Assembly (NCBI GenBank): GCA_964483785.1
Contig: CAZACW010000003.1
Coordinates: 20,559-84,558 of the forward strand
DNA length: 64,000 bases
Direction: 5' to 3'
DNA from: an uncultured Planctomycetales bacterium
GTDB lineage: Bacteria; Omnitrophota; Gorgyraeia; Zapsychrales; Fredricksoniimonadaceae
Shown one piece after another: positions 1-47,310 of this stretch. The stretch's first letter is position 1, and every line of letters starts with the position of its first letter. The notes under the pieces were generated by a model, which was not told the origin of the DNA, did not search any database, and was given only the letters and a program-made list of their open reading frames with translations. Made by a program: the position numbers and the translations under genes.

Positions 1-3000
1 GGCGCCCTGGATAAAATCCAGGATCCATGAGGCTGTTAAAGCAGCGGCCCCCGCGCACAATAAGCCGGTATTTTGTACAACTTGCTGCATGAGCGTATGG
101 ACGATCACCTGGCTTCCTGTGGAAATAGATAAGGATTCCGGGAGGAGAAAATTAATTTGATAATCTCCGATAAAACCCATCAGCCAGGATGCCCCGAGCC
201 CAAGCCCTCCCAAGGCCAAAAGGCCCCTTGTCCATTTTGCTATGGGTGAGAGGACCGGGTTTTTTGTTTCAGGGACCATATAAACCATCATTATCAAGCC
301 AATGCCTGCAGCCAGCAGGCCCCAGGTCGATGATCCTGCGAACTGATGGATATAGGAAAACAGCACATTATTATACAAATGATCATGAATCATCGATTGA
401 ATATGGGTTATTTCCGCACGTCCGAATGCCGCCGCGATGAATATCCAATACACTAAAAATAAGTTTCTGGCGGCCCCGATCAATAAAGGATGGCGGGCTT
501 CCTTGGCCTTGGTCTGGGCCCAGGTTCTAAATTGGCCTTCATTGTTTAGAATTTCGAGCGATCGCCCGACTTGTTCTTTGACTCCCTGCTTATCAGCCTC
601 GGCCTGCCTGATTCTTTTGACTTCATCCCACATGTAAAGATTGATCAGGGTCATGGGATGGTAGCGGGGATTGGTGTAGGTATCCTCTTCATTATTGCGG
701 AATCTTATGCCTATGATCCTTCTGAGGCTTTTTAATATTGATCCCCGCGTTTTCCAATAAGTGGCCTGTTTTTCAAATTCTTCATAAAAAATTTGTGACC
801 ATTTGTTGATGATGGCCTTGATTTGATCATCGTTGATGACCGTGGGGTCCTTGGCTTGGATGTTTTTGAGCAATGCGATCAAGGCCGTAAAACCGTTGGC
901 TGAAAGAATATCCAGGGAGCGGGGCCCCTGAATGTCTTTTCGCAGGACATGCACACGATCTTGATGGGGATTTGGAATCGGGTTTCCATATTGATCAGTC
1001 ATTTCAATGGTCTGGGCGATCAGGTCATAAGCCGCGCTGATATCCTTCATGTCAAAATCAGGTATGCTGGCCTTGACCTTGCCGATCAGATAAAATTTCC
1101 TGACTTGAAGCAAATTTTTGGTCACGGCCCCGGTCAACAAATTGATAAAAGGCGCCAAAAGAATGCTGGCTAAAGGCAAATAAGCCATGGCAACCCAGAA
1201 TAGGCTGTGGGCGGCAGGAGCGGCAAAAGAAAGCTGTGCCCTGTCCTTGGGTGCCGGATTATAGACACTCGCCCCTCCTTGTTGGGCCATCAGCCAATCA
1301 GCGCCGGCTGTTAAAGATGGTGCCCAGCTTGGGGATGGTCCGTCCGTCCTCGGATAAAACCGTCTCATATCTCCTGAATCAAGTCCTTGTCGGGGATCCA
1401 CGGCGGACGCGTTTATACCGATTAATTCCGGGAACATATTTTCCGGTGTGCGCGGATAAGCGGCTAAGGCCCTTCTGAAGCCATCTTCAGCTTGCTGATA
1501 ACCAAGCAATCTCGCCGTTCTTAACCCATTAACGGTTGAATCCACAGCAATGACCCTTTGCCTGGGGCCGATGGCTATATCTAACCCCACCTGACCGTCT
1601 GTTTTAACTTCAAAAGGCCTATCCATCATGTCTAAAAGCTGGATGCCTTTTGCATCATCTATCCGCCCCATGGCCTTGGCGGCTTCAATAAAATAAAACC
1701 ATGTGTCGGATGAGGACCCCGGGATTTCGCCAAATTCGATGGCCCCGTTTTGCCTTCGGTAAAATCCATAAGGGACAATCGATTCATCCTTGACCCTGCC
1801 CATCACATAGGTATCAAAAAATTTCTGCAAAGACTCTATTCTGGGACCGAGGAATTGCCTAAAGTCCGCATCCAGCGTTGTATCTTGGCGCATGGCATTC
1901 AACAGAAGAAATATTTTGGAATTTGTCCGCGTGAGGTAATTATTGGGCCGCCCAAGAAAATTGAGGCCTAAGGTTTTGACTTGCGGAACAAATTTTTCTT
2001 CCGCAAAGGCCCCGATCTCATCATCGGAAGAATAGAAGGTCTCTACCAAGGTCCTGGCCATGGCCATGGCCATGGTGCGGGCATAAGGATTGCCATTGGC
2101 TTTCCAAAGTTGGTAGACCGCATTGGTAATGGCCGCCTGGCTGTCGGCTTTGGGAGTGGAATAGGTCGGATTATTTAAATCCGGAGTGGTGCGCTGAGGC
2201 GCCCCGGAATTGATGTTTAAAAAATTGACGACTGGGACCTTCCCTTCCCCTGTGCTGTCCCAGAAGCTGAAAGGCCGCTTATCTGTTTGATATAACAAAA
2301 TATCCTGGGCTATTTGGATCCCTTCTTGATCTCCAGATAAAATGAGCGCGGCCAGAAGGTCGCCTTGCTTGGCCACATCAAGGCTCTGCTCCTGGGTCCC
2401 ATGGGTCAATGGGATCAATCCTGTATGGCTGTTCCTCCATGCTTTGGCAATTTGTATCAAATCAGCTGTTGCGGGGATTGGATGATCGGGAAGATCATGG
2501 AGTTTCCAGAACGGCGTATTGTAAACAAATGCGCCCACTGGATGGGGTTTGGTTTCACGGTTATTTCTCATGCGGTCCAATACTACATTATCTATGGCTT
2601 CATGGTCCGCATTTGGATTGAATTTCGGAAAATAGCTCCTTGCAAAAGTCATGTAAAGATCGTTAAAGGTCAGTTCCCTGAATGCTTTGGCTGCGCCGCC
2701 TCCATAATTATTAGGAACAATAATAGGGGCATCGCCTTGCCAGGTGGTTTGGGACGGCCTGTTTCCTGCATGAGCAAAGGGGAATAATTGAATGGATGGA
2801 ATGCCGACGCCGTTGGACAATAAGTACATCCTTGAATAACCATTTTCCACAATGCTGATCTCTTCAGCCACTGTAAAACCGGGGTAGCCGGAATAAACAT
2901 TGGCTGTCGGCTGATTTTTTTCGTTTAAGTCATCGAAAGTATAAATGGTCGTTAAAGGCGTCCATTGGCCCAGCTTTTCATCGCGGTCGTAGCGGGACAT

Positions 3001-6000
3001 CAAGGCTTGCCCATCTCCCAGGATTTCAAATTGGACCCTGTCCCTTTCTTCATGGGTGCTTTTCATCTGCTGTAAGAACTCTCTTGTTTTGGCCCAAACG
3101 CCTTGCCTGGCTTTCATGTTTTGCAAATTGGCGACAGCCTCTCCGAAGTTCCATCCCAAATCAGCCGTGACCGTGTCATTGGAATTAAACTGGATACGGG
3201 CATCCGCTATATAGCGTTTTAACTCACCCAGCAAGACCGTCTCATCCTGTCTTTTTGTGATCTGGATTTCATTTTGCTGTTGGGTAGTTTTTAAAGCAGA
3301 TACGCCGACAGGGACGTCTTTATTGCCCTTATAATGGACAACCACAGAATTTATTTTGCTTGGATCGATCCCGGCATCGGCCATCCACTGCACCGGCATG
3401 ACAAATGGGTTTCTGCCCTTTAATGATCTTACATTGACCACGGCTGAACTTTCCCTGGTCGGAGATTTTTGGTCAGGGGTGGAAATGACGGTAAAATTGT
3501 AAGGATAAATAAAGGGTAATTCATGGATTTGACCCGAGGCCAACAGGTTCTCAAAATAATTTGATTTATCCATTTTGGATGTAAATGTGACCTGATGGCC
3601 GAGCGCATCCGTAACCAAGACTTCGATATCATCATACATCTGCCCATCCTTGGAATCTGCGAAGAAATACCAATAATCCTGTTTACTGGCGTCTTGAGGA
3701 GGAGCTCCTGCCAATAAATCGATCCTCCGGTCATTCTCCGAGGTCAAGCCAAGATAGGTCTCATGTTCCGGGGCATAAATATAGTAGGCAAATTTACGGT
3801 CCTGTTCACCCTGTTGATTGACCAGATTCGCGATACTGGATTGAATATCGCCCTTGGTTGACATGGTGATCATTTCAGTCCAGGTTTTGTCCTGGTTATT
3901 CCCAAAATAATGCGTGATCAGCATGGTGAGAGTGCCGTCATTCGGATTGTAGTCCTTGGCAGCAGCGGAATACAGGGGCCTCACCTGTTCCCCTTGATCA
4001 TTGATTTCAAAAACATCGACGGTATCAGCAATGCCGTGGGCCACGGAATAGGAGCCGGGTTCATTTCTCCAATTGAAAACGACTTTTTTATGGCCAATGA
4101 TTTTCCATTGGATGCGTTCAAGCCCGTAACGGTAGGCCAATTGGATGGTCTTGGCCACCTGCTGATTGTCTGCGATGACCTCCTGATTCACCACCGTGGT
4201 GCTGCCATTGCTGAGGGCCTCATCCAACTTAATCTTGAAAGTCCCCTGCAGTCTGGATACGTCATAAGACCCTAAGACCGGAATTCTGTTGACCGGCTTG
4301 CCGTTTTGATAGTTGGTGTTTTCAGAATCCGGTATAAGATCAAGATCGAATATATTATCTGCTGTAGGCTGCCGGAATATGTTTTGGGTCCTGTGCTCCC
4401 AGAGGGCCTGGGCCATAGGAACATTTTGACTGGAACTGTCAAAAAAGGCGCGCGTCGCAGATACCCTTCCGCGATGTTTCGGGTCTGTGTCTTCATAGAA
4501 GATTTTGTGGTCCGCGCCTTGGATTTGCCAGGTCAGCAAGGATGAGTTTAGGCCGCTGAATCTCCTTGTTTCTCCTCTATTGTTGACCACGGTTTGCGGC
4601 ACCAAGGCCAGAGGGCCATTATAGGCATAGCGGCTTGTGACAAGGCCTTCAAAACTGATGCCCAGAGGGCTTTTGTAAACGCCTTGAGGTGCTGATTCCG
4701 CAAGCAGCAGGCCTGTGGCCATATCATCCATTTGGGTGGATGGTTTTTGATGGCCAAGGTCCATGACATCCCGTATCCTTTGTCCACGCGCAAAACGGTA
4801 ATGGCTGAAATCAAATTGGTGTACCCATTGATGGGTGGCTGGATTAAAAAGGTCCATGGTTGCGCCTGTTTCAATGCCGTCTCGGTCATGACGGGGTAAA
4901 TACCGTTGATTGATCCCGTCATCGGAGGCGGTCAACACATCCAGGGTCCTTCCAAAAGGTGATTGATACACCGTGCTGCTTGCCAAAGCCAGGCCCTGGC
5001 CCACCTGCTCAGCCCATTTGGTCACATTCAATTCCCAGCGCATGTGATTGCGGTCATAGGTGCTGGTGGTGGTGACACCGCCTTTTTGCTGACCGATTGT
5101 GGTCGTTGAAGATTGATGGGTCTCATCGCGGTCCATGTCTGTCCTGGTTACGACCCAGCGGTCCAAGCTGTCCTTGCCGGCCACCAGGATCGGCTGTGTC
5201 CATCTTGGATCAAATAATCTGAATGATCCTTGGCCATGCTCATCCAAATGGTAAATCCAGCTTCTTCCCGTGGTTTGATCATAGTTGAATAACCGGTCTG
5301 AGGCCAAGGTGGTGCCTGAGCCGCTTTTGGTTTCCGATGCCAGGGGCACCACGCCCGAGAATTTGCTGCGGTCATAATCAAGCTGCGTATTTTGGGTTAC
5401 TGTATTTCCCCCTATTTGGTCCGCGTCCCTGTTCGATTGAACGACGCCCGATGCATTGATGACAAGGGAATGCGTTATGTTGGTCGACAGATTCAAGGAT
5501 TCAACGGGCAAGGTAAACCCTGATCTTTGCAGGTTTCTGTCCTGGCCCATGATAGGCGATGTGTTGGAGGTGCGAAGCGCCCCCGGGACAGGCCGGAGTA
5601 AACGCTGGGCGATTTGCTCAACATCCAAGGGCCCTGTCATGTCATCGCCGTTAAAGAAAACTTCTGAATGTGGAGGCAGGCCATAGGCGTTTCTCTGGTA
5701 TTCCGTAATTTCATTCAGGGTCACTTCAGAGTCCGGATATTCATGGTCGGTAAAAATTTGCAGCCTGCGTTCATTGTTGGTGCGGCCGATGTAAACTACC
5801 TTTTTGGTGATATGATGGTCTCCGGCCTTTCTTTCAAAGTTGGCATAGAGGGTGATGGTCACAGCTTCAGCTTGGGCTTTGCCCTGGGGTGTTTTGGCCA
5901 GTTCAGCCACGGCATTGGCTTGGGCCATGTATTCCGTCACGCCGGCTAATCTCTGGACATGGGTTGACCTATAGGGATTAGGATAAATATAGGTCCCGAC

Positions 6001-9000
6001 TTCCAGGTGGAGTTTCATATCATAGGCAGGAACAATGATATGTTCTTCATCAACGCTGTATTTTAATAAACCATTGCGGTACACCTTTAATACGGGTTTT
6101 CCAGTTGTTGGGCTTGGGGTGATTTTATGGACATCCGTATCTAAAGGATAGATAATCGTCGTAAATGGTCCTGTGGTCATCTGTAAATCTGCATAACCTT
6201 GCAATTGTGCATTGGCTTTTTGTTCATCTGTCCATTGTTCGAACTGAGGATCAAAGACCCCCCTGACCCAGGTCGAATTACGGATGTTTGCGCCTGTGGT
6301 GGGCTCAGGAATGATTCTTCCTGGGACAATGCCCCAGGGCATTTTTCTGACTTGGGAGACGATCCCGGCACCGCCTTCAAATCCAGGGTCCCCGCGGATG
6401 GCATGGCCCATGTTTTCGGCGTTGATTCGACCAATGGCGGCATTGATTTCTCTTTGCTGTAAATAAGCCAGCGACCTGGTCAAATGCAGATAAACAGTGG
6501 TCCCGTCCGCCTTGCTTTCAATGGTGGCCTCTGTATTTCCGCTTGGCCTGATATAACGCCCATTTTGGGCTTGGATGATCCTTCGGTAATGGTCGACCTC
6601 TTTGTCGCCGATATGGATGTCCACGCGTGTCATTTCATCCGTGACCACCTTGGCCGGCAAGGGGATAATGGACGGCGGCTTGAGGGTAGGCCTTCCGATC
6701 CTGAAAATATTGATCTGATGTTCTGACAAAGATTTTTGCAGAAGAGGCGCTGTGGCCCTTGTGCCTTCTTGAGTGTTATACCCAAAACCCGTTGGAATGT
6801 TCGAATGTGCGGCTTGAGGCAAATTACCGTCATTGGCATCGGCAACGATTCTTAACGTTTTCAAATAACCGTCGCGGATCTTGGAGGCTTTTTCAACGAT
6901 TTCCGGATGTTGGTGGGTGTAAGCGTAGTTGATGATTTCATTGAGGACTTGCACGGCTTCGGAGGTGACCTCAAACATGACGGCCTTTCCGAAACCGTGG
7001 GCACGGGCATCGGCATCAGCCAAACTCAATCCCCTGATCTCAAAACGGCGGCCGTTAGCGATATAATAATCATTGATCCCGAATTCTGCATCCACCCTTA
7101 ACCACCAGGCCATGACATCCTCGATGGTCATTTTATTGGATTGCATGAACAGTTCCATGCCCTTGCTTAAGAAGGTACGCGTATTAGCGTCAGAGGAGAG
7201 ATAGCTGTTGATGCCGGGTTTTTGCTGGCCGCCGGCCTTATACAATCCTTTTTGGGGATCGTAACGAGTATCTAAGGCTTCTGACATTTGACGGTACTGT
7301 TCGTCCAATTGACTTCCGATGCTTCCATTGAAAAGCCGGTTGAATCCGCTTTGCTGCTGTTGAAGCCCTGGGAGCATGATGTGCCTATATTCCCCCATCG
7401 CCCCCACGGTCAAGGCCAGTGGCTCGGTGCCGTTTTCATTTTTCCAATTATTGCCAAGCCATACGGCCAGGGCATTGATGATATCGTCATTGCGGGTGTA
7501 GGTGTTGTCGCCTTTTAAATAAAGGGCATTTCTTAAATTCAGCAAGGACATGAGGATTGAGGCATTGGGGCCTGGCCCGGGCGCGCCATCGCCTTGGGCG
7601 CGGCGGAAATCATACACATCGTAATATTCCGCGAAGCCTTGAAATCCCGTTTTTTGGGCATTAAAGATGGTGCGGATGAAAGCCTCCAGGGGCTGGATTC
7701 GGTTCCAATCATTGGCATACACCGCGAATGTCAGCCCCAGGGATTGATCGAACATATAGCCGCGGCGGTTGGATTGGCCGGCATGGATATAATCCATGCT
7801 TTGTAAAGCGCCGCTGGCTGTCCTTTGATGAAACGGATCCCCTCCAAGGGCGGCTTGGTAGATTTCAACGCCCCCCTGCTGCATCACGCTTGTAATCTTA
7901 TCATAAGTCTTCAAGTCCCTCTCCACCTGTTCGGCGTTCTCTTCAACGCCGTTGATGGTCGGAAAAAACAGCCTGTAGCTTTCCCTGCCCTTGGCATCAC
8001 GCTCTACGATGGCAAAAACCGGACGGTTGTTTTCCGTCATACCGATCACAAAACCTTTCATCATCTGGGCATGGGCCTCGGCCTTGGTATAGGTATGCAC
8101 CTTGCCGCTGAACCACCCATTATCGAAAGCATACCCGCTGATGCCGGAACCCCGGACATTGGCCTTGTTGATCGTGGTGATTTCCTCGAGCTGGGTCCTT
8201 AATTTAGTGTCATAGAGGCCCCAAAAATTAACGGATATAATTGGACCGTCGACATGGGGAAATGGCGCCCGCAGTGGATTGCCGCTGCCGGTTTCCTGTT
8301 CTATTTTGTTGGCCAATTGGTAAAAATTGATTTCTATGCCTGGTAACAAGGAACGGAAAACAACCGGCGCGTTGGGGCCTGCGATGTCTCTTAAGGCAAC
8401 AGCATCTTGCGGGCCGTGGTTCAAGGCCCAGGCCGCTGCGTAATTCACATTAAATGCGCCGCTTAAGGGATTAAACGGTATATTCCTGGCAGCCCTGCTC
8501 AAGGGGCTGTCTTTTAAGGTGGTGGTGGCGGCGTTAAGTACCCTTAAAGCATCGCCCATTTGGCGGGCGATTTTGTCATAGCCATATTTGCCTTCGATAT
8601 AATGTTGTAATTGTGTCATCTGTTCCTGGCCCAATTCTCCATTAATCATGCGGCGGGCTTGCTGGCGGAAAATATCCTTTTCAGGATCAGGCATCTGGTC
8701 CCAATTGGCCGTAGAACCGGATTGATGATAAACATATTGCGCGACAAAATCCATAAATTGGGTTTCGGTCGGCATGGTCATGAGGTCAGGACGGTTAAAA
8801 ATGTCCCAGCCGAAATCGAGGATGCTGCCTACCGGTACCTTCATGTTAGGCACAAAGGAAAGGCCGAGATTTACCAAAAAAACGGCCCGGTTGAAACGCT
8901 GTTTATTTTGTAAATAGACTTGGTAACGTTGATTTTGTTTGTTTTCAACTTCCGCCAAGAAACGGTCCGCGAAGGCCTCAGACCGTAATTGAACAAGATA

Positions 9001-11889
9001 ATTTCGGCCTAAAATGATTTTATGCGTGTTGTTGGGCTCATCTACGAATACAAAGGTCATGGTTTCTGAATCTGTGGTCGGTACGTATTTCAATTTATGC
9101 CATTGACCGTTGATCTGGACGACCCTTAATACACCTTCTTTCGGGTCTTCTGCATTTCTCCACTGGGTCCGGCTGATGAATCGTATTGGTTTGTAAGAGG
9201 GGCCTTGATGCGCGCTTTCGGCATTTTCGACCTCTACACCCAAAAGAAGATCATTGCCTTTGGGCAGTTCGGCATTCGGATAAAATTTATGCGCCAGGGT
9301 CCTGGCCTGGGTGCCGTCCAGTTCTGCCAAGATTGAACGAAAACCAATGACGTTTTCCCGGGTGATCCTTTGGTTTCTGGCCACATCCAGCATGGTCTGG
9401 GCCATGGTCTCATTGGTCATCATCAGCCCTTCCCTGACCTGGCCATTGATTTCGCCCTGGTACCAAACTACAAACGGGTTCATGTTGAAGTCGAAATCCT
9501 CCGCTTCGATGACGGACAAGCGTTGAAATAGCTTTGGGTCCTTGATATGCGCCCATTGCAAGGGGTCGGTAATACGTATCTTGGGTACATAGATGGCGAT
9601 CTGCAGATTATTTTTGATGGCATCCAGGAAAATTTTGGGATCGTTAAACCTGACCAGAGGAGAAAATAAGGCTTTTTCATTCAAATTGGCCAGAATGGCC
9701 ACTGGCCCGCCTTTTTTAAAAAATAATTCGCGTTGAATATTGTCCCTATTCTCTTGGGCTTGGACACTCAGAAGTCTCTGTGGTTCGCTGACTAACTGCG
9801 GCCTGACATTGGAACGAAAATGATTTTCAATAAGGTTCGCTGGAACCATGGTCATGGGAGGTGTGGCCATGGCCTCAAATCGTTGCATCTCAGATTGAGG
9901 AAATGACGGAAAACTGTTTTCATCCATCTGTGTTCTTGTAGTTGTGGGGAGAAACGGCAAAGGAACAGCGGAAGGCTGTACCGAAGCGGGAACCACCCTT
10001 GCAGGAATTGTTGCTGGAGCTGTCCCGATGGCCGCCGCGGGCATATGGAAATTTGCCGTTTCATTGGGATGGACGATCGTATTGTCAGGTGTGATGGTCC
10101 TGGTACCTTGAGGCCCGGTGACAGTCACCCGGCCTTCCTGGATCAGACGGTTGATCGTCATGCGTTGGGATTTGGCTAGGGTATTGTTATAGGCTTGGAT
10201 TTCTGCGGAGCCCATGAAGGTCGTATACAATGATCCCTGGATGCCGGCATTGATCACATGTTCCGGCGGCGGCGCACTGCCGCCGGCCGCTGCAGGTCCA
10301 TGGGCAGGCAGGACCGCGGCCGGCGCTGGAAGCTCTTCGGAACGCACTCCCCCGGCTGCTGCTGTGCGGACAAGGTCCAAATTAAGGACGATTTTATGCG
10401 GCGCTTGATTGGGCAATGACCGCAAATGATAATTGGGCACATCGGTGACAATATCACCGTCAATGCTCAATACGCCTTGGCGGGCCAGCACATCAATGGC
10501 TTTTTTCCAAACATTCAGGTCCTGGCCGGTCTCTTTATACAGCGTGCTGTTGATCAGTCCATACACGCTCCCTGCCCTGCCTTCGGCGTTGATGGCATGC
10601 AGGTCGGAATGATTCTCGGCGTATTGCTGGACAGCGGCAGCCGGCGTATTTAAAAACGGGTTTTCCGCGGCAGATGCCGTGTACATCCCGGCCAAACTGA
10701 CAGGAATGCTCAACAAGGCGCCAAATGCCAAGGCCTTTTTAGCCAGCTGTGCCGAATCCGGACCCTTGACGATCACCATGGCCGCGTTTTGCCAGGACAC
10801 ACCGCCTGAGAAATATTTTCTCGCCACGGTCTCATTGCTCGGCGTCACTTCTTCCTTGATGTAGTTGTACACGCCTTTTTTGTAAGACACCAGATACTGC
10901 CGGAAGATTTCCTCATCCACGTTTTTGTCCGTGACTTCAATGCCGTTGATTTTGCGGCGGTTGACATATCCTTTGGCCATGAGGCTTTCCTTTAATTTGT
11001 TTTTGTACCAAAGGGCCAGGACCAGCGAATTGTAGACCTGCCTTAAATTGGCGAAATTCTCCCCTGTGTTGACTTCTTTTTCCAGGATGGGCAGAATGAC
11101 CTGGCGGATAAGTTGATTGCTTAATTGATGGGCGTCCGGGGTTGGGTGTTTGGCATCAAGGTTTATGTTCTGATCACTGCTCACTGAGCGCTGATCAAGC
11201 GCATGATGCTTATGCATGGACAGATAATCTTCTTCCAACATCACCTTTAATTTGCTTTTGATGATCACGGCTGTATTGGCAGCGGCATTTTCATACACCA
11301 CGGCCTTCTCCGGGACGATCCACACCTTATTGAAGGTGTTCACCGGAATATCGGTGCTGCCCAATTTTTCATAGGCCTGCTGATAGATGGCGCGCCAGAA
11401 GGCACGGCCTACCTTGCCGTCCGGATACATCACAGAAGCCGTAACTTGTTTTAAGAGATAATCCTGGGCCAAGAGTTCCTTGCCCATTTCCGTGATCCCG
11501 AATTCCTTAGGGACGATATGCTCTTTTTCATAGGGGGATAAATTCACCCACATGTCTTTTTGGGGGATGGTCAAAGAGGCGAGAAAATATTTGATCAATC
11601 TTTCCGCTTCATGCTTGAGAAAGACTTTTTTCATCAGGGAGTCATCATCAAATTTAAGTGTGCTGTCCCCTTGCGAAAGCACGAATTCGAATTTGAAGGG
11701 ATTGTTTTTGTAAATTTTAAGGCCGCGGATGAGAGGCGGTGAAAAGCGCGGGGTCAGTGCGACCATTTGACCGGGCGCAGGCAGAAAAGGCACATTGGCC
11801 AAAACAGGTTCAGAGACCAGGGTATTGACCAGGAAGGTGGTAAGAACAGTCCATAAAATAGGTCTATTTATATACTTGTTTTTCAACAT
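1..11889 (-). CDS. Giant secreted protein, 5' end of gene present (ATG at 11889). The ORF runs off the window start, at least 3963 codons. N-terminal signal peptide MLKNKYINRPILWTVLTTFLVNTLVSEPVLA. Hydrophobic TM-like stretch near the window edge. No domain recognised by eye.
   Basis: Hand translation of the minus frame (codon first base at plus coordinates divisible by 3) gave no stop in about 25 sampled 60-nt lines. These were 1-480, 2041-2100, 5821-5880, 7381-7500 and 10681-11889. A TAA lies immediately upstream of the ATG at 11889-11887. The six-frame track lists no minus ORF in this frame across 1-11889, which fits a single open frame lacking an in-window stop. All listed minus ORFs here share the other frame. 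Confidence 0.6.
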   Translation of the reverse strand, partial: MLKNKYINRPILWTVLTTFLVNTLVSEPVLANVPFLPAPGQMVALTPRFSPPLIRGLKIYKNNPFKFEFVLSQGDSTLKFDDDSLMKKVFLKHEAERLIKYFLASLTIPQKDMWVNLSPYEKEHIVPKEFGITEMGKELLAQDYLLKQVTASVMYPDGKVGRAFWRAIYQQAYEKLGSTDIPVNTFNKVWIVPEKAVVYENAAANTAVIIKSKLKVMLEEDYLSMHKHHALDQRSVSSDQNINLDAKHPTPDAHQLSNQLIRQVILPILEKEVNTGENFANLRQVYNSLVLALWYKNKLKESLMAKGYVNRRKINGIEVTDKNVDEEIFRQYLVSYKKGVYNYIKEEVTPSNETVARKYFSGGVSWQNAAMVIVKGPDSAQLAKKALAFGALLSIPVSLAGMYTASAAENPFLNTPAAAVQQYAENHSDLHAINAEGRAGSVYGLINSTLYKETGQDLNVWKKAIDVLARQGVLSIDGDIVTDVPNYHLRSLPNQAPHKIVLNLDLVRTAAAGGVRSEELPAPAAVLPAHGPAAAGGSAPPPEHVINAGIQGSLYTTFMGSAEIQAYNNTLAKSQRMTINRLIQEGRVTVTGPQGTRTITPDNTIVHPNETANFHMPAAAIGTAPATIPARVVPASVQPSAVPLPFLPTTTRTQMDENSFPSFPQSEMQRFEAMATPPMTMVPANLIENHFRSNVRPQLVSEPQRLLSVQAQENRDNIQRELFFKKGGPVAILANLNEKALFSPLVRFNDPKIFLDAIKNNLQIAIYVPKIRITDPLQWAHIKDPKLFQRLSVIEAEDFDFNMNPFVVWYQGEINGQVREGLMMTNETMAQTMLDVARNQRITRENVIGFRSILAELDGTQARTLAHKFYPNAELPKGNDLLLGVEVENAESAHQGPSYKPIRFISRTQWRNAEDPKEGVLRVVQINGQWHKLKYVPTTDSETMTFVFVDEPNNTHKIILGRNYLVQLRSEAFADRFLAEVENKQNQRYQVYLQNKQRFNRAVFLVNLGLSFVPNMKVPVGSILDFGWDIFNRPDLMTMPTETQFMDFVAQYVYHQSGSTANWDQMPDPEKDIFRQQARRMINGELGQEQMTQLQHYIEGKYGYDKIARQMGDALRVLNAATTTLKDSPLSRAARNIPFNPLSGAFNVNYAAAWALNHGPQDAVALRDIAGPNAPVVFRSLLPGIEINFYQLANKIEQETGSGNPLRAPFPHVDGPIISVNFWGLYDTKLRTQLEEITTINKANVRGSGISGYAFDNGWFSGKVHTYTKAEAHAQMMKGFVIGMTENNRPVFAIVERDAKGRESYRLFFPTINGVEENAEQVERDLKTYDKITSVMQQGGVEIYQAALGGDPFHQRTASGALQSMDYIHAGQSNRRGYMFDQSLGLTFAVYANDWNRIQPLEAFIRTIFNAQKTGFQGFAEYYDVYDFRRAQGDGAPGPGPNASILMSLLNLRNALYLKGDNTYTRNDDIINALAVWLGNNWKNENGTEPLALTVGAMGEYRHIMLPGLQQQQSGFNRLFNGSIGSQLDEQYRQMSEALDTRYDPQKGLYKAGGQQKPGINSYLSSDANTRTFLSKGMELFMQSNKMTIEDVMAWWLRVDAEFGINDYYIANGRRFEIRGLSLADADARAHGFGKAVMFEVTSEAVQVLNEIINYAYTHQHPEIVEKASKIRDGYLKTLRIVADANDGNLPQAAHSNIPTGFGYNTQEGTRATAPLLQKSLSEHQINIFRIGRPTLKPPSIIPLPAKVVTDEMTRVDIHIGDKEVDHYRRIIQAQNGRYIRPSGNTEATIESKADGTTVYLHLTRSLAYLQQREINAAIGRINAENMGHAIRGDPGFEGGAGIVSQVRKMPWGIVPGRIIPEPTTGANIRNSTWVRGVFDPQFEQWTDEQKANAQLQGYADLQMTTGPFTTIIYPLDTDVHKITPSPTTGKPVLKVYRNGLLKYSVDEEHIIVPAYDMKLHLEVGTYIYPNPYRSTHVQRLAGVTEYMAQANAVAELAKTPQGKAQAEAVTITLYANFERKAGDHHITKKVVYIGRTNNERRLQIFTDHEYPDSEVTLNEITEYQRNAYGLPPHSEVFFNGDDMTGPLDVEQIAQRLLRPVPGALRTSNTSPIMGQDRNLQRSGFTLPVESLNLSTNITHSLVINASGVVQSNRDADQIGGNTVTQNTQLDYDRSKFSGVVPLASETKSGSGTTLASDRLFNYDQTTGRSWIYHLDEHGQGSFRLFDPRWTQPILVAGKDSLDRWVVTRTDMDRDETHQSSTTTIGQQKGGVTTTSTYDRNHMRWELNVTKWAEQVGQGLALASSTVYQSPFGRTLDVLTASDDGINQRYLPRHDRDGIETGATMDLFNPATHQWVHQFDFSHYRFARGQRIRDVMDLGHQKPSTQMDDMATGLLLAESAPQGVYKSPLGISFEGLVTSRYAYNGPLALVPQTVVNNRGETRRFSGLNSSLLTWQIQGADHKIFYEDTDPKHRGRVSATRAFFDSSSQNVPMAQALWEHRTQNIFRQPTADNIFDLDLIPDSENTNYQNGKPVNRIPVLGSYDVSRLQGTFKIKLDEALSNGSTTVVNQEVIADNQQVAKTIQLAYRYGLERIQWKIIGHKKVVFNWRNEPGSYSVAHGIADTVDVFEINDQGEQVRPLYSAAAKDYNPNDGTLTMLITHYFGNNQDKTWTEMITMSTKGDIQSSIANLVNQQGEQDRKFAYYIYAPEHETYLGLTSENDRRIDLLAGAPPQDASKQDYWYFFADSKDGQMYDDIEVLVTDALGHQVTFTSKMDKSNYFENLLASGQIHELPFIYPYNFTVISTPDQKSPTRESSAVVNVRSLKGRNPFVMPVQWMADAGIDPSKINSVVVHYKGNKDVPVGVSALKTTQQQNEIQITKRQDETVLLGELKRYIADARIQFNSNDTVTADLGWNFGEAVANLQNMKARQGVWAKTREFLQQMKSTHEERDRVQFEILGDGQALMSRYDRDEKLGQWTPLTTIYTFDDLNEKNQPTANVYSGYPGFTVAEEISIVENGYSRMYLLSNGVGIPSIQLFPFAHAGNRPSQTTWQGDAPIIVPNNYGGGAAKAFRELTFNDLYMTFARSYFPKFNPNADHEAIDNVVLDRMRNNRETKPHPVGAFVYNTPFWKLHDLPDHPIPATADLIQIAKAWRNSHTGLIPLTHGTQEQSLDVAKQGDLLAALILSGDQEGIQIAQDILLYQTDKRPFSFWDSTGEGKVPVVNFLNINSGAPQRTTPDLNNPTYSTPKADSQAAITNAVYQLWKANGNPYARTMAMAMARTLVETFYSSDDEIGAFAEEKFVPQVKTLGLNFLGRPNNYLTRTNSKIFLLLNAMRQDTTLDADFRQFLGPRIESLQKFFDTYVMGRVKDESIVPYGFYRRQNGAIEFGEIPGSSSDTWFYFIEAAKAMGRIDDAKGIQLLDMMDRPFEVKTDGQVGLDIAIGPRQRVIAVDSTVNGLRTARLLGYQQAEDGFRRALAAYPRTPENMFPELIGINASAVDPRQGLDSGDMRRFYPRTDGPSPSWAPSLTAGADWLMAQQGGASVYNPAPKDRAQLSFAAPAAHSLFWVAMAYLPLASILLAPFINLLTGAVTKNLLQVRKFYLIGKVKASIPDFDMKDISAAYDLIAQTIEMTDQYGNPIPNPHQDRVHVLRKDIQGPRSLDILSANGFTALIALLKNIQAKDPTVINDDQIKAIINKWSQIFYEEFEKQATYWKTRGSILKSLRRIIGIRFRNNEEDTYTNPRYHPMTLINLYMWDEVKRIRQAEADKQGVKEQVGRSLEILNNEGQFRTWAQTKAKEARHPLLIGAARNLFLVYWIFIAAAFGRAEITHIQSMIHDHLYNNVLFSYIHQFAGSSTWGLLAAGIGLIMMVYMVPETKNPVLSPIAKWTRGLLALGGLGLGASWLMGFIGDYQINFLLPESLSISTGSQVIVHTLMQQVVQNTGLLCAGAAALTASWILDFIQGA

Positions 11890-12098
11890 TTATCCAGTAC
11901 CTTTAAATAAACCTCTTCACTTCTTCATCAAAACTGTTCTCTATATCTAAAGTATATCCCGTTAATAAGGGCTTTGGGCCCCTGAAAGGCCTTTCAAGAG
12001 AAAGCGCTTTCCCGGTTAAACCCCGACGGAGATTAGAGATAATAGAAAAATTTAGATTAAATTTTTAAAAATTAGGGATCGAGGGTTGCTGCGGGAAA

Positions 12099-12512
12099 CT
12101 AAATCGAGGGCGTTTCGGATTTCTGCAGGATCTTCTTGATGAGCTTGAGCGAATTCTCATCGATGCTGGTAAAATAAATCACAAAGCCTTCGCCCGGCAC
12201 CATGCGGGAGATGCGGGCAAGGCCTTGGATCACTTCTGTATCGTTAACGGCACATTGGATGCTGATGCCGATTTCGTCGTTCACGCTCAAATAAAGATTA
12301 TTTTTGATCCTGACAAAGGCGCTGTTTAAGGACAGGTCCTTGATCTGCGCTTTCACGGACAATTGCGACCCGACGCTGACCGTGGCCGGAAATTCCACGT
12401 TGACGCGCGGCTGGCCGCGCTGGTCGCTGTTGCCCAAATAAGCCGTCATAACATTCCTCGATTCATCTAATGATTCAACGGGAGTAATCATCCTGAATCC
12501 GGATGATATCAT
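12099..12512 (-). CDS. PilZ-like domain protein (putative c-di-GMP binding). A more likely start is the internal Met (MTAYLG...) near 12449.
   Basis: 137 aa ORF. It has an RGQPR (RxxxR) motif followed about 25 aa later by a DLSLNS (DxSxxG-like) motif. It is co-directional with the hem operon. Confidence 0.35.
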   Translation of the reverse strand: MISSGFRMITPVESLDESRNVMTAYLGNSDQRGQPRVNVEFPATVSVGSQLSVKAQIKDLSLNSAFVRIKNNLYLSVNDEIGISIQCAVNDTEVIQGLARISRMVPGEGFVIYFTSIDENSLKLIKKILQKSETPSI

Positions 12513-12813
12513 CTTCTCCCAGGTATTTCCCGCAGGCCACTTCGATTAAAACCAAATGCTCAGGGCCTGTATTGCCTATGCGGTGGACGGCGCCTAAAGG
12601 CACATCCACCACGACACCGGGGTTGACAGGGATTTCCTTGCCGTTGACAATGGCCATGCCTTGCCCTGCCACCACGACCCATTTTTCCGACCGGTGCTGG
12701 TGCTTTTGCAGGCTTAACCTCGCTTGAGGGTTGACCTCAATGCGTTTCACCCAAACGCCGGGTTCCTGATGGAACTTGTGATATTGGCCCCACGGCCTTT
12801 TGGTGATTTCCAC
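12475..12813 (-). CDS. Cupin domain protein (mannose-6-phosphate isomerase type II / RmlC-like cupin)
   Basis: 112 aa. The core QKHQHRSEKWVVVAGQGMAIVNGKEIPVNPGVVVDVPLGAVHRIGNTG is typical of the cupin two-His motif 1 and motif 2. Confidence 0.55.
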   Translation of the reverse strand: MEITKRPWGQYHKFHQEPGVWVKRIEVNPQARLSLQKHQHRSEKWVVVAGQGMAIVNGKEIPVNPGVVVDVPLGAVHRIGNTGPEHLVLIEVACGKYLGEDDIIRIQDDYSR

Positions 12814-14081: not shown

Positions 14082-15031
14082 TTCAGGGCAGATTTGGCGT
14101 GATAAGAAATGATGATGTCTGCGCCGGCGCGCTTCATCGCGGTCAGGGTTTCCAGGACAATTGATTTTTCATCGATCCATCCGTTTTGCGCGGCGGCCTT
14201 GACCATGCTGTACTCACCGCTGACATTGTAGCCTACGATGGGCACGGTCAATTCCCGGCGAAGTTGGGCGATGATGTCCAAATAAGCCAAGGCAGGTTTC
14301 ACCATGATCATGTCAGCGCCCTCGTTAACGTCTTTTTTGGCTTCTTTCAAGGCCTCGCGGCTGTTGGCAGGGTCCATTTGATAGGATTTGCGGTCGCCTG
14401 ATTTGGGTGTCGAATGGGCGGCATCGCGAAACGGGCCGTAATAAGCCGAAGCATATTTGACTGCATAGGATAAAATGCCCACGTCCTGAAATCGGGCCTG
14501 GTTTAAGGCCTGGCGGATGGCGCTAACGCGAAAATCCATCATGTCCGAAGGAGCGACCCAATCCGCGCCGGCCTGGGCCTGGGCCACGGCCATTTTGCCA
14601 AGCACAGGCAGGGTCTTGTCGTTGTCGATTTTTTCGTTAACGATCAGGCCGCAATGCCCATGGCTCATGTACGCGCACAGGCACACGTCTGTGACGATCA
14701 AAAAATCCGGAAAATGTTTTTTTAAGGCCTTGATGGCCGACAAAACAGGGTTGCCGGCGGCATAGGCGTATTGGCCGGTATTATCTTTGCGGGCCGGCAC
14801 GCCAAAGAGCATGCATCCTTTGCCGCCTTCCCGGATATAATCATCAATATCTTTAAGCAGATAATCCAGGGAAAAGCGGAATATGCCGGGCATGCTGGGG
14901 ATGGCTTCCTTTTTGTTTTTGCCCGCGACGACAAAATAAGGCTGGAGAAGATCATAGGCATTTAAGCGGGTCTCGCGGACAAATTCCCTGATTGCGGGCG
15001 TGGCCCTTAATCTACGATAACGATACGGCAT
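14069..15031 (-). CDS. hemB: Porphobilinogen synthase (delta-aminolevulinic acid dehydratase)
   Basis: 320 aa. Starts MPYRYRRLRATPAIREFVRETRL and carries an active-site lysine region typical of HemB. Overlaps the upstream fusion gene by 20 nt. Confidence 0.95.
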   Translation of the reverse strand: MPYRYRRLRATPAIREFVRETRLNAYDLLQPYFVVAGKNKKEAIPSMPGIFRFSLDYLLKDIDDYIREGGKGCMLFGVPARKDNTGQYAYAAGNPVLSAIKALKKHFPDFLIVTDVCLCAYMSHGHCGLIVNEKIDNDKTLPVLGKMAVAQAQAGADWVAPSDMMDFRVSAIRQALNQARFQDVGILSYAVKYASAYYGPFRDAAHSTPKSGDRKSYQMDPANSREALKEAKKDVNEGADMIMVKPALAYLDIIAQLRRELTVPIVGYNVSGEYSMVKAAAQNGWIDEKSIVLETLTAMKRAGADIIISYHAKSALKWIS

Positions 15032-17084
15032 CTTGATATCCTGAGGCTTGCAAGGTTTGTAAGGTCACCGGCCCCTTGGCCAGGATTTTCCAGGAATTCG
15101 GTATTATACCATAATCCGTCAGGAAATTCCGGACGGTCGAGGGGCTGGTAAAAATGACTCCGTCTATCTTGATCTCGGGCAAAGCGCGCTTGGCCGGCTT
15201 GGTATTTTCATAAATGGTGATTTCCGTGACCTCGGCCCCCTGGGCTTGTAAGGCTTCTTTCAAAAAAGGATTGGGCAGATTTGAGCGCGGCCATAAAATG
15301 GATTTTCCTTTAAGTGTCCATCGCAAAGACATGGCCTTGAACAGGCCTTGCGCGGTTTCTTCCGGAGAGACCAGATCAGCTTCAATGCCGGATTTTTCAA
15401 GCGCCATTTGGGTGCGGCGGCCGATCACTGCAAATTTTTTAGTTTTGAAATCCGTGTTTGGATCAAGGGCCCGTATGGCTTTGATAAAATATTCGCCCGC
15501 ACTCCAGCTGGTGCAGACAATGATCTCGGCCTGCTTAAAACTTTCTTGCAGTGCTTTTGTCTGGGCCTGATTCATGGCCGCAGGCGTGATTTCGATCATG
15601 GGCCAGGACACGATATTCCCCCAGGGTTGATAAGCCTGGGGATGTGTCCCGCAGTGAAGCAGGGTCGGCTTCATTGCAGGTTTATAAAAGTCAATGGTCC
15701 GGCCGGCAAGAATCAGCGCCGGCGGTTTAAGGCCAAGGGCTTTGGCTTCAATGCTCTCAAGGGTGCCTTTGACAATCTGCTCCTTGGCCTTGGTGCCGTT
15801 GGCGATGATCATCATCGGCGTATCCTTGCTCCATCCTGCCTTGCGCAAGGATTGGACGATGGTATTTAATTTGGTCAAGCCCATCAAAAAGACCAGGGTA
15901 TCTGCCTGGGGAAGATGGATGTCCTTGGGATGCTTTTGGTCTTCCTGTTCTTCATGGCCGCTGATAAAGGCCACCGAGGAAGAGATGCCTCTGGCTGTCA
16001 AGGGAATGCCTAAGGCCGAGGGAATGCCGGTGGCAGAACTGACACCGGGAATAATTTCAACTTCAATATGATAGGAGCGCAGATATTGGATCTCATCCGC
16101 TCCCCGGCCGAAAATCAGAGGGTCCCCGCCTTTTAAGCGCACCACATTTTTGCCGGCCATGGCCTTCATTTTAAGCATCCGCGAAAGTTCTTCCTGGGGC
16201 AGCGCCTGCTCACCCTTGCGTTTACCCGCGTAGATGGTTTCAGCTTGAGGCGCGAATTTGAGAAGTTCGGGATCAACCAGATAATCATAGAAAACACAAT
16301 CAGCCGTTTTTAGCGCGTCCACCCCTTTAAGGGTGATCAGGCGGCTGTCCCCTGGCCCGGCACCGACCAGGCTGACCTTGCCGTAATGCCGCCGCACATC
16401 AATGTCCTGAAATAAAACTTCCAAATGCAAATCTTTCCTGCGGCCCACCACAGCCAGCTGGCCTTGCAAAGGCATGGCTTCCCAAGGCAAAAAATCCTTG
16501 ATCCGATGCTCGAGTTTAAGGCGTTTGAGCGCGCAGGCAGCCATCACCAGGCCGTCCAGCTTGCCTTCATCTAATAAGAGCAGGCGTTCCTGGATGGTGC
16601 CGCGGATATGGACAATATCCGCATCGGGCCGCATATGCAGGACCTGATGCTGACGCAAGACGCTGCTGGTGCCGATTTTGGCCCCTGGTTTTAAATCCTG
16701 CCAGGCCATGCGGCTGACCCAGGCGTCCCTGCCATCCATGCCCTTGGTCAAGGCAAAAATTTTCAAGCCCTCCGGCATATTTTGCGGCAGGTCCTTGGCG
16801 CTGTGCACGGCCAGATCAGCCTTATTGCCAAGCAGGGCCTGGTCAATGGCGTCGGTAAAAAAATCATCGCGGCTTTCCGTCAAGGGCGTATGCTTGTCTT
16901 TGTCGCCGCTGGTTTCCATGGTGATCAGCTGAAAATCCAAGGCCCTGCCCTGGATTTTAAGCTCCTGGACAATTTCTTCGACCTGGGCCAAGGCCAAGGG
17001 GCTGAAACGGGAAGCGATTCTAATAGGTTGATTCATAGAGGATATTATACAACGTGAGTTCGACATATTGAGAAAGGCATGCAA
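15012..17084 (-). CDS. hemC/cobA/hemD: Trifunctional fusion of porphobilinogen deaminase (domains 1-2 only), uroporphyrinogen-III C-methyltransferase (CobA/SUMT) and uroporphyrinogen-III synthase (HemD). The likely true start is the Met of MNQPIRIASR near 17036.
   Basis: N-terminus IRIASRFSPLALAQ ... GTSSVLR ... LQGQLAVVGRRKD is HemC-like. Middle VSLVGAGPGD ... VRLKGGDPLIFGRGADE ... IPGVSSA is SUMT. C-terminus KKFAVIGRRT ... GVIFTSPSTV is HemD. The HemC part is about 210 aa and stops where the E. coli domain 3 (Cys242 cofactor loop) would begin. Confidence 0.85.
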   Translation of the reverse strand: MHAFLNMSNSRCIISSMNQPIRIASRFSPLALAQVEEIVQELKIQGRALDFQLITMETSGDKDKHTPLTESRDDFFTDAIDQALLGNKADLAVHSAKDLPQNMPEGLKIFALTKGMDGRDAWVSRMAWQDLKPGAKIGTSSVLRQHQVLHMRPDADIVHIRGTIQERLLLLDEGKLDGLVMAACALKRLKLEHRIKDFLPWEAMPLQGQLAVVGRRKDLHLEVLFQDIDVRRHYGKVSLVGAGPGDSRLITLKGVDALKTADCVFYDYLVDPELLKFAPQAETIYAGKRKGEQALPQEELSRMLKMKAMAGKNVVRLKGGDPLIFGRGADEIQYLRSYHIEVEIIPGVSSATGIPSALGIPLTARGISSSVAFISGHEEQEDQKHPKDIHLPQADTLVFLMGLTKLNTIVQSLRKAGWSKDTPMMIIANGTKAKEQIVKGTLESIEAKALGLKPPALILAGRTIDFYKPAMKPTLLHCGTHPQAYQPWGNIVSWPMIEITPAAMNQAQTKALQESFKQAEIIVCTSWSAGEYFIKAIRALDPNTDFKTKKFAVIGRRTQMALEKSGIEADLVSPEETAQGLFKAMSLRWTLKGKSILWPRSNLPNPFLKEALQAQGAEVTEITIYENTKPAKRALPEIKIDGVIFTSPSTVRNFLTDYGIIPNSWKILAKGPVTLQTLQASGYQDAVSLS

Positions 17085-17135
17085 GGATATGTTTTTGATA
17101 AAGCGATGTGCTTTTCCCCCCAGGCGCGCAGAGAC

Positions 17136-17163
17136 CCATCACAACCCCCGGGGGTTGTGATGG
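17136..17163. repeat. 28-bp perfect GC-rich palindrome CCATCACAACCCCCGGGGGTTGTGATGG, copy 1 of 3
   Basis: Read directly. Intergenic, about 50-100 nt upstream of the hemC-fusion start on the minus strand. Near-identical copies lie at 18599-18622 and 47311-47337. Confidence 0.8.
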
Positions 17164-17372
17164 TATCCATGCGTACCGTCGGGTGGCCGAGGGAGGGGCA
17201 TCGCCCGTTGAGCGAGGCTTTTGCGAGCGAAACGGGGATACCCGAGGCCAGGACCCGACGGTCTGCTAAACATGTCCTTGCGTGCCTATAGATAGCGTTA
17301 TGTCGAACTGACGTTATACAAGAATTGGGAGGACACAATACTGAATTCAATCGTCGGGCCTTTAGGAGCCCC

Positions 17373-18566
17373 CTAAGGCGCTACATACTTATCGACCACA
17401 TAGCTTGCGAAAGGCAGGGAACAGGTCAGGGCCGGCGAGACAGCATTGAGCACATGGACGCTTTGTCCATCGCCCTCCACCACGAAATCCTGGACCAAAT
17501 TTAAAGTTGTGCGGTTAAGCAATTGGGCCCGGATCCCGGGCTTGGTCCAGTCCGTGAAGCCTTCAGGGTCAATGCGCTTGACCATGGATTGGGCCAGGCC
17601 GATGAAATATTTTTTGTCGTATTTGCGCATTTCTTCATGGGCCAGGGCGCGGAAATTAAAGGCATTGCTTGCGTACAGCTTGGTTTCGTAGAAAAGCACT
17701 TCGGACATTTCTTTAAAATCGAATCCGTGCCGGATATCGTAATTTTCGCGCCAAAACGCCGGGATCGCGGTGGGGCCGATTTTAATGTCGCCATTGACGG
17801 TCTTGGTAAAATGCACGCCTAAAAAAGGGTTTTTTAAATTTGGGACCGGATAAACATGGACGGAAACATCGTCCTTATTTTTAGTGTATTTCAGATAAAG
17901 GCCTTTGAAAGGGACCATGGTGTAACGTTTTCCAAATCCGAAATCCTGGGCCACCTTGTCCGCGTAAAGCCCGGCGCAATTGATGATCTTATCGCCCAAG
18001 AAATCGCCTTGCCGGGTATGGATGAGATTACGGGTATGTCCCAAATATTTGGTATTGAATGAGAATTCCACATCCTTTTGCATTAAATCCTCTTTGAGGC
18101 TGGCGCAGACCTGCACAGGGTCAATGCTGGCCGTATCCGGGGAATACAAGGCCTGCTTAAAGGTTTTGACATTAGGGTCTATGGCTGACACCTCTTCTTC
18201 TGTGATCAACCGCACATTGGAACCATTGGCCTTGCCCCGGCGCAAAAGCTCCTGCAGTTGGGACAATTCTTCCTCATTTTGGGCGACCACTAATTTTCCG
18301 CACGCATTCAGGCTCAAGCCCTTGGATTGCACATAGGCCCGCAGGGCCTTGTTGCCTTCCACGGTGAATCTGGCTTTCAGGGAATCAGCCGTATAATAAA
18401 AACCGGCGTGCAGAACACCGCTGTTGCGGCCTGAGGCATGCATGGCCTGGGCCTCTTCTTTGTCCAGAATGAGGATTTTGGCCATGGGCTTGCGCGCCTT
18501 AAGGGCACGCGCCATGGCCAGTCCTATGATGCCGGAACCAATGATGATAAAATCATAATTTTTCAT
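17373..18566 (-). CDS. FAD-dependent oxidoreductase, L-2-hydroxyglutarate oxidase (LhgO/YgaF)-like
   Basis: N-terminal MKNYDFIIIGSGIIGLAMARAL dinucleotide-binding motif. RNSGVLHAGFYY and overall collinearity with the LhgO family as recalled. The ORF track starts at 18605 inside the palindrome. Start at 18566 is more plausible. Confidence 0.65.
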   Translation of the reverse strand: MKNYDFIIIGSGIIGLAMARALKARKPMAKILILDKEEAQAMHASGRNSGVLHAGFYYTADSLKARFTVEGNKALRAYVQSKGLSLNACGKLVVAQNEEELSQLQELLRRGKANGSNVRLITEEEVSAIDPNVKTFKQALYSPDTASIDPVQVCASLKEDLMQKDVEFSFNTKYLGHTRNLIHTRQGDFLGDKIINCAGLYADKVAQDFGFGKRYTMVPFKGLYLKYTKNKDDVSVHVYPVPNLKNPFLGVHFTKTVNGDIKIGPTAIPAFWRENYDIRHGFDFKEMSEVLFYETKLYASNAFNFRALAHEEMRKYDKKYFIGLAQSMVKRIDPEGFTDWTKPGIRAQLLNRTTLNLVQDFVVEGDGQSVHVLNAVSPALTCSLPFASYVVDKYVAP

Positions 18567-18598
18567 ATGTGAGGTTAATTTTGCTAAAATAACGTCGA

Positions 18599-18622
18599 CC
18601 ATCACAACCCCGGGGGTTGTGG
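18599..18622. repeat. Palindrome copy 2 (CCATCACAACCCCGGGGGTTGTGG, right arm degenerate)
   Basis: Read directly. It lies in the divergent region between the LhgO-like gene (minus) and the plus-strand small-protein gene. Confidence 0.75.
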
Positions 18623-47299: not shown

Positions 47300-47310
47300 A
47301 TTTCTTACAA

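Follow-up and report, generated by a model that had tools for sequence, protein, structure and literature searches.

The question raised here is what is encoded by the first 11.9 kb of a stretch of 64,000 nucleotides (contig CAZACW010000003.1 of assembly GCA_964483785.1, positions 20,559 to 84,558 of the forward strand; "the window" throughout), where a list of open reading frames (ORFs) is silent and where a preliminary description made from the letters had seen a giant minus-strand gene for a signal-peptide protein running off the edge. The DNA is labelled as from an uncultured Planctomycetales bacterium and is placed by the GTDB in the Omnitrophota, which are widespread, ultra-small and probably host-dependent bacteria; very long genes that resist annotation are the least understood feature of that phylum. 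The answer is one genuine gene of 15.1 kb in an Omnitrophota-type bacterium, with a product of 5038 amino acids (aa). What is new here, and most useful, is that true length, the split of the protein into a variable and a conserved part, a superfamily of proteins of 3-5.6 thousand aa that share the core, and a rule by which a head and a tail enclose differing cargo.

One gene of 5038 codons

1-11889, minus strand: codons 1-3963 of a 5038-codon gene, stop-free, identical to the public protein P0122, with host-like codon usage

Translated from the reverse complement, window positions 1-11889 give 3963 codons and no stop, as had been described, whereas each of the remaining frames, over the first 12 kb, has 112-219 stops, and the ORF list is silent there only because the frame leaves the window. 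From the base composition the chance of so long a stop-free run is about 1e-85. Codon usage, which is even along the whole visible gene, correlates at 0.87 with that of ten neighbouring genes when read in frame and at 0.16 and 0.05 in the shifted frames. The start is the ATG at 11887-11889; a TAA (11890-11892) lies directly before it and so a longer N-terminus is ruled out, and homologs align from residues 1-15.

The full frame, which had been sought beyond the window, was recovered by an exhaustive HMMER search with aa 2401-3600 among 1.84 billion cluster representatives. This returned P0122, a 5038-aa protein in a public collection (from an NCBI record, on a contig of 96,009 bp), whose first 3963 residues are the window translation (100%), and so 1075 codons and a stop lie beyond window position 1. 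The gene does continue past the edge as was said of it, but it is not open-ended, and nor does it have the scale that the word giant implied, since 5038 aa is far under the 10,000-147,000 aa of the Omnitrophota proteins so named. Its product has just three cysteines (paralogs have 0-6), and neither internal repeats nor paralogs within the window were found.

A rival view is that of an assembly chimera, of genes fused by sequencing error or of a decaying pseudogene, and a third homolog (L001, contig_42993 of ENA ERZ25039529) is indeed interrupted by at least four frameshifts. Set against this are the negligible chance of the open frame and its uniform codon usage, an independent ortholog of 5213 aa (P0123, described below) that is collinear from signal peptide to tail, and the presence of a head at the start and a tail at the end as the rule of the family has it. 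That this is not one functional gene is very improbable, and the idea is close to refuted. As to the frameshifted homolog itself, its positions 1597-5423 correspond to aa 2658-3940 with at least four frame switches (frames 1-3-1-3) and overlapping open stretches run on to about 9570; the switching points to errors of long-read assembly or to a decaying copy.

A head and a tail around variable cargo

11797-11889, minus strand: signal peptide, aa 1-31 (MLKNKYINR, a hydrophobic core, then SEPVLA), predicted cleavage before N32
10795-11796, minus strand: Omnitrophota-specific head domain, aa ~32-365

The signal peptide, which the preliminary description called classical, has a basic n-region, a hydrophobic core of about 15 aa and V-L-A at positions -3 to -1, and it keeps this character across its family: among 56 aligned signal peptides alanine stands at -1 in 53 and alanine, valine or serine at -3 in 47, with a helix breaker of the form G-P-x-P ahead of them. 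Of 102 family members, 77 have a hydrophobic helix at the N-terminus. With the first 400 residues as query 1162 homologs were found at E<=1e-3, of which the best has 58% identity (E 1.8e-137), and all of those with a named organism are Candidatus Omnitrophica or Omnitrophota, save two given as "hydrothermal vent metagenome". The head alone has 45 invariant columns, and a scan for it in one genome per GTDB species gave more than 590 loci, from which 80 were kept (L002-L081). These kept loci belong to metagenome-assembled genomes labelled Omnitrophota or Omnitrophica, bar the "uncultured Planctomycetales" co-assembly bins and one Candidatus Elulimicrobium, and single genomes of this kind carry 5-9 copies of the head. 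Going by this distribution of the family, the window would itself be of Omnitrophota origin.

A second shared module is found at the other end. The C-terminal ~60 aa of the full-length protein, which lie outside the window, read GGIDL...FDDPAML..LL.S.GLTPII.DI..MTP...D.FVG; the motif GGIDL...P(V/I)I...FLG is present in the protein and in its ortholog, and it stands within the last 90 residues of 52 of the 61 head-bearing ORFs that close in the fetched loci, with tblastn E-values down to 2e-8 between this tail and those of the family. What lies between differs widely. Head-bearing ORFs run from ~400 to >3700 aa, those at the 80 loci have no similarity to the present protein past aa 420, and the family middles that can be annotated are unrelated to one another (AAA_5, PPDK_N/glucan-water-dikinase, HEAT, UPF0489, HAD and methyltransferase). 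There is thus a large phylum-specific family built of a signal peptide, a head of ~335 aa, a variable middle and a tail of ~60 aa, and the present protein belongs to it both by its signal peptide and head and by its terminal tail. The head and tail modules have no entry in Pfam or NCBIfam and the head has no PDB match; in the literature searched neither the tail motif string nor a description of the family was found.

By analogy a role of head and tail in sorting or anchoring is plausible. Substrates of type IX secretion likewise have a conserved export signal and a conserved C-terminal module around variable cargo, with many paralogs in a genome. They differ in lacking the extra 335-aa conserved head, and the present tail is unlike the known C-terminal sorting domains in that it matches nothing in Pfam or NCBIfam; no matching secretion machinery was found for the head-cargo-tail proteins, and the type IX likeness is an analogy only. 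A more local proposal would make the protein a PEP-CTERM substrate of the exosortase encoded nearby, since 12 kb upstream, and on the same strand, are the genes for EpsH and EpsI. The protein however ends in ...LLLNSDGLTPIINDIKVMTPAMVDRFVGAN, the C-terminal 40 aa contain no PEP motif, terminal membrane helix or arginine-rich end, and it is the GGIDL tail of its own family which occupies that place, so that the proposal deserves practically no credence and is refuted at the level of the C-terminal sequence. In practice the head and tail together provide a sequence handle for retrieving hundreds of relatives and for asking how large proteins are targeted to a cell surface.

A fast-evolving stretch and a conserved membrane core

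10678-10734, minus strand: moderately hydrophobic segment, aa 386-404, ALAFGALLSIPVSLAGMYT, Kyte-Doolittle 19-aa mean 1.57
5290-10677, minus strand: fast-evolving region, aa ~405-2200, with Pro/Ala-rich linkers at aa ~500-700
4765-5742, minus strand: first block shared with distant membrane proteins of 3.3-5.6 thousand aa, aa ~2050-2375
1300-2442, minus strand: domain of widest conservation, aa ~3150-3530, predicted extracytoplasmic and placed just ahead of the first membrane anchor
1120-1200, minus strand: first membrane anchor, aa 3564-3590, hydropathy peak 1.94, followed by a K/R-rich stretch
493-1119, minus strand: K/R-rich loop domain, aa 3591-3799, predicted cytoplasmic by positive-inside reasoning
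1-492, minus strand: start of the polytopic membrane module by hydropathy, aa 3800-3963, four of ~17 helices

The ortholog of 5213 aa comes from an independent JGI metagenome contig and is collinear with the present protein from the signal peptide through the last residue, at 58% identity over the matched stretches. That figure hides a marked division, because aa ~405-2200 are only 17-32% identical and gap-rich, whereas identity elsewhere is 50-77% and climbs to 84% over the last 38 residues. The fast-evolving region has no Pfam match. After it comes a conserved core of ~2800 aa (aa 2200-5038) with ~17 membrane helices near its end. Three genes past the stop of the ortholog its contig (L082) has, at 17112-19304 on the plus strand, a gene whose product of 730 aa contains a UTP-glucose-1-phosphate uridylyltransferase (UDPGP) domain (E 1.1e-9).

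Strong hydrophobicity at the visible C-terminal end had been pointed out from two peptides, AKWTRGLLALGGLGLG and LCAGAAALTASWILDF, and both are in the translation, in which five segments look like transmembrane ones (aa 3564-82, 3802-20, 3854-72, 3889-3907 and 3942-60). Over the full length hydropathy gives 16-17 such segments, of which only one or two fall outside aa 3564-4900, and the polytopic module extends off the window to aa ~4900. The first anchor is conserved in the ortholog and in a further relative (P0121), and the loop domain after it (62-70% identical to the ortholog) has 31 lysines and arginines in ~200 aa, with membrane helices on both sides. Loops past aa 3564 are in alternation poor and rich in K/R, an alternation which would put aa 32-3563 outside and aa 3591-3799 and ~4123-4558 in the cytoplasm. 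Whether the segment at aa 386-404 spans a membrane is uncertain; it has a counterpart in the ortholog and, in the family, in 10 of 102 members when only strong segments are counted and in 19 of 102 when moderate ones are included.

The conserved core is rare, since the tile of aa 2401-3600 gave only 22 matches at E<=1e-3 among the 1.84 billion representatives. Scans of JGI metagenomes with the core returned the contig of the ortholog only, aa 1001-1700 found no relative among JGI metagenome contigs, the C-terminal part found none among GTDB genomes, and a word-indexed search with the C-terminal 864 aa, which apparently lists only matches shorter than ~1.75 times the query, returned only P0121. 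The region common to most of the 22 relatives is the domain at aa ~3150-3530 (phmmer i-E 6e-22 to 4e-13; 35% identity to P0121), a profile of which matched nothing in PDB or Pfam. Beyond the close relatives a set of proteins of 3341-5573 aa (P0132-P0141; ENA, Logan and NCBI sources, from other metagenomes) has four blocks collinear with the present protein, at aa ~2050-2375, 3150-3530, 4480-4615 and 4620-4800, these being common to eight of nine relatives and two being found in the other (P0139). The first block has i-E values of 3e-11 to 2e-4 in phmmer comparison of these proteins with P0122, in eight of the nine and collinear in eight. Invariant D-R, E, G-W, S-E-D, K-x-R-E and R-W residues mark the shared core, and one of the distant relatives, from Omnitrophica, carries the annotation "MFS transporter, partial" in NCBI.

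Within this distant set the C-terminal module is 40-63% identical to the reference P0134 over 750 aa and has ~150 invariant columns; these are very large membrane proteins for which no Pfam match (P0134 and P0138 tested) and no NCBIfam match (P0134 and P0132 tested) was found.

Searches with the present protein were similarly empty, in line with the earlier statement that no catalytic or adhesin motif could be recognised. Pfam gave no family for the visible 3963 aa (E<=0.01) or for aa 3501-5038 (E<=0.1), and NCBIfam no match for the visible part; domain searches on tiles of the protein, which had been proposed as a check, gave only noise with Pfam at E<=1, as did NCBIfam at the same threshold with two complete head-family proteins and the P0122 tail. 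Sequence and profile searches of the PDB with the visible protein, with the C-terminal module of the distant family and with the family of aa 3100-3963 returned nothing meaningful, and fold searches were negative. An impression by eye of RHS/YD repeats at aa ~2100-2700 has no Pfam support. Rarity of long proteins that cannot be annotated, which had also been claimed, does not hold in this phylum: the Nielsen & Lui 2026 catalogue (10.64898/2026.06.07.730766) lists 916 Omnitrophota proteins of at least 10 kAA, 137 of them without a hit in any InterProScan database.

A proposed exported protein held by a working membrane core

12099-12512, minus strand: stand-alone PilZ-domain gene directly upstream (Pfam PilZ, E 1e-6, 29.4 bits against a cutoff of 22.5)

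The best explanation overall, to which we give slightly better than even confidence, is that of an exported and membrane-anchored member of the head-cargo-tail family with a variable ectodomain and a working membrane core. Sec-dependent export directed by the signal peptide would carry the first ~3500 residues through the inner membrane until the helix at aa 3564-3590 halts transfer. The protein would then be held by its C-terminal membrane module, and both K/R-rich domains (aa 3591-3799 and ~4123-4558) would lie on the cytoplasmic side. Contact with the outside world, whether with other cells or with surface polymers, may fall to the fast-evolving ectodomain, and the core with its invariant charged residues would do the work, most probably the transport or synthesis of an envelope polymer. 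Control of the core may come from the adjacent PilZ protein and cyclic di-GMP (c-di-GMP), the former being a candidate c-di-GMP-dependent partner.

Several points weigh against this arrangement. The topology is taken from hydropathy and the positive-inside rule only, and a second membrane helix at aa 386-404, if that segment is one, would flip the large middle into the cytoplasm; whether the C-terminal helices are odd or even in number is ambiguous, and with it the side of the membrane to which the tail belongs. Cargo of the AAA_5 and PPDK_N kinds, which is typically cytoplasmic and ATP-using, sits behind the same signal peptide in the family and is awkward for export, and the same puzzle of cytoplasmic-type cargo with an export signal has been noted for the Omnitrophota giant proteins (10.1101/2023.11.21.568195). 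The PilZ link is one of adjacency alone, no conserved neighbours were found at two distant relatives, and no known domain was detected anywhere in the protein, its function being purely inferred.

Could the core be a glycan synthase?

For the work of the core the most explicit proposal is that aa ~3800-4900 form a processive membrane glycosyltransferase of the cellulose-synthase/Fks1 type, in which a GT-A-like domain at aa ~4123-4558 between helix bundles would polymerise a nucleotide-sugar under PilZ gating and the polymer would be threaded through the protein's own channel to its huge ectodomain. The invariants of alignment A3 (segment numbering) are K285, D307, E361, E422-D423 and K452-x-R454, at offsets of -22, 0, +54, +115/116 and +145/147; the Fks1 residues reported essential (K1082, D1102, E1155, E1221-D1222, K1246 and R1248) are at -20, 0, +53, +119/120 and +144/146, so that the offsets of five motifs agree between the two to within 5 residues, and the Fks1 fold is cellulose-synthase-like. 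S-E-D followed ~45 residues on by R-W also resembles the TED...QxxRW of cellulose synthase, with D343 in its TED and QxxRW a motif of that enzyme. The domain at aa ~4123-4558 is predicted cytoplasmic with helix bundles on both sides, a poor AlphaFold model has strands and helices alternating at segment residues 228-342, and in the genomic setting PilZ adjoins, an exopolysaccharide cluster and a c-di-GMP riboswitch are near, and a UDPGP-domain protein (E 1e-9) is encoded three genes downstream in the ortholog.

Direct comparison does not bear this out. Pfam finds no glycosyltransferase in the C-terminal 1538 aa (3501-5038) or in P0134 and P0138, NCBIfam has no match in P0134 or P0132, and at E<=10 the family profile matches nothing in the PDB, in which Fks1 and BcsA (5EJZ) are both represented. 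With hhalign genuine FKS fragments, which cover the ED/KxR region only, gave probabilities of 0.5% and 0.1% in a register differing from the proposed one, and a GT2 protein of the window gave 0.2%; the likeness of motif spacing was moreover spotted post hoc. Set beside BcsA (GT2) and Fks1 (GT48), the core has in common a predicted cytoplasmic domain between helix bundles and, by the post hoc match, a similar order and spacing of K, D, E, E-D and K-x-R, and with BcsA a PilZ/c-di-GMP setting, although PilZ is here a separate gene; no sequence or profile similarity to either was detected and the 3500-aa ectodomain has no counterpart in them. A cellulose- or glucan-synthase-like core is hence a hypothesis that profile-profile comparison does not favour, and we regard it as doubtful while far from negligible.

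A broader version would link two proposals, the head and GGIDL tail being a phylum-specific sorting or anchoring cassette and the core a polymer synthase-exporter family, and the pair is speculative and unlikely. Such a cassette could deliver very diverse cargo to the envelope, ranging in size from proteins of 400 aa up to machines of 5000 aa or perhaps more, possibly by way of the co-located type II secretion-like apparatus. The core of the present protein and of its relatives of 3.3-5.6 thousand aa could in turn be that of undescribed synthase-exporters with a cellulose-synthase-like centre under PilZ/c-di-GMP control. Were the core a synthase or exporter it would be a new family in envelope-polymer biosynthesis, and were it not, it would be a well-delimited piece of protein dark matter. 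The gene is short enough for experiments, with its start, end, ortholog and split into variable outer and conserved membrane parts all defined.

Relation to the giant proteins of Omnitrophota

Very long genes that cannot be annotated are an already documented hallmark of the phylum and the phenomenon itself is not new. Many Omnitrophota genomes have ORFs above 20 kb, and West-Roberts et al. 2023 (10.1101/2023.11.21.568195) described archaeovorin and dockerin types of up to 85,804 aa, which have numerous membrane helices and SecA-like domains and whose genes stand downstream of type II secretion-like loci and near pilZ. The Nielsen & Lui catalogue gives a signal peptide or membrane helices for 94% of its 916 proteins, those with both making up 39% of the long proteins. 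Could the present protein be a small relative of these giants, attaching its owner to prey or host cells by a variable ectodomain that binds the target and digesting their walls through unrecognised hydrolase domains?

With the giants of West-Roberts et al. it shares the phylum, an N-terminal signal, many membrane helices and unannotatable stretches, and the genomic setting reported for giant genes is present here too, with pilZ close by and type II secretion-like genes upstream. It falls too in the class with signal peptide and membrane helices, and an 1800-aa stretch that evolves much faster than the rest is what would be expected of a surface interacting with other organisms. It is however six to seventeen times shorter, at 5038 aa (15.1 kb) against more than 30,000 aa in the described classes, and no sequence similarity to those proteins was found. 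Pfam finds here none of their divergent SecA_DEAD and SecA preprotein-binding domains, and their glycosyltransferase, glycoside hydrolase, methyltransferase, C39/S8 peptidase, NUDIX, dockerin and TSP3 domains are not detectable; adhesin and lectin domains were likewise not detected. Similarity to the 80 Omnitrophota loci ends with the head, and the predation hypothesis is itself unproven. The gene is outside the described giant classes, being too short for them and showing none of their signature domains, and a role in attachment and digestion seems quite improbable. Similar as well are the Pfam-dark proteins of the Nielsen & Lui catalogue with signal peptide and membrane helices, which have the same architecture, darkness, absence of repeats and secretion or pilus neighbours; the catalogue starts at 10,000 aa as against 5038 here, and no mention of the head and tail modules was found in the sections of it consulted (10.64898/2026.06.07.730766).

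Neighbouring genes and other features of the window

11890-12098, minus strand: AT-rich intergenic region of 209 bp upstream of the large gene, by sequence
12068-12039, minus strand: sigma-70-like match within that region, from a consensus scan only

All genes of the window are on the minus strand and the large gene is the last one visible. Upstream of the PilZ gene come, in order, hemL, hemB, a hemC-cobA-hemD fusion, a FAD oxidoreductase and a PocR-GAF protein, then a sigma-54 response regulator, a histidine kinase, a sugar transferase, EpsI, the exosortase EpsH, a GT2 protein and a polysaccharide deacetylase, then a type II secretion/type IV pilus-like set (PilO/M/N, GspK, pseudopilins, GspF, GspE and a secretin), and lastly three secreted Ig-domain proteins, a GH123-like protein, glycosyltransferases and a Wzy-like polymerase. 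The GspD/E/F/K/M-like, PilM/N/O-like and pseudopilin genes occupy 27.3-36.7 kb. Exosortase and secretion genes belong to the same co-directional array as the large gene, at 12-25 kb from it, and so the secretion/exosortase supercluster beside which the gene had been placed is upstream but does not adjoin it, with ~12 kb of other genes between.

Overlapping the start of the PilZ gene is an ORF of 112 aa (12475-12813, minus strand) which by eye looks cupin-like (…GAVHRIGNTG…). The heme fusion (15012-17084, minus strand) encodes 690 aa made up of porphobilinogen deaminase, a CobA-like tetrapyrrole methylase and uroporphyrinogen-III synthase, and it lies next to hemB and hemL, on the stretch from the regulators to the large gene. 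The three secreted proteins (37361-40693, 41063-43129 and 43142-47317, minus strand) are paralogs rich in Big_7 Ig domains, whose mature N-termini past the signal peptide are near-identical (WYVRDGGG / YYVRPDGG) and which have no PEP-CTERM-like tail despite the nearby exosortase. Directly 5' of the first of these genes, encoding 1110 aa, is a c-di-GMP-I-GGC riboswitch at 40776-40867 on the minus strand (Rfam RF03167, 60.8 bits against a gathering score of 59, E 7e-12). In the polysaccharide cluster, 47374-49098 (minus strand) encodes the GH123-like glycoside hydrolase and 50276-52507 (minus strand) a 743-aa protein with two tandem GT4 units.

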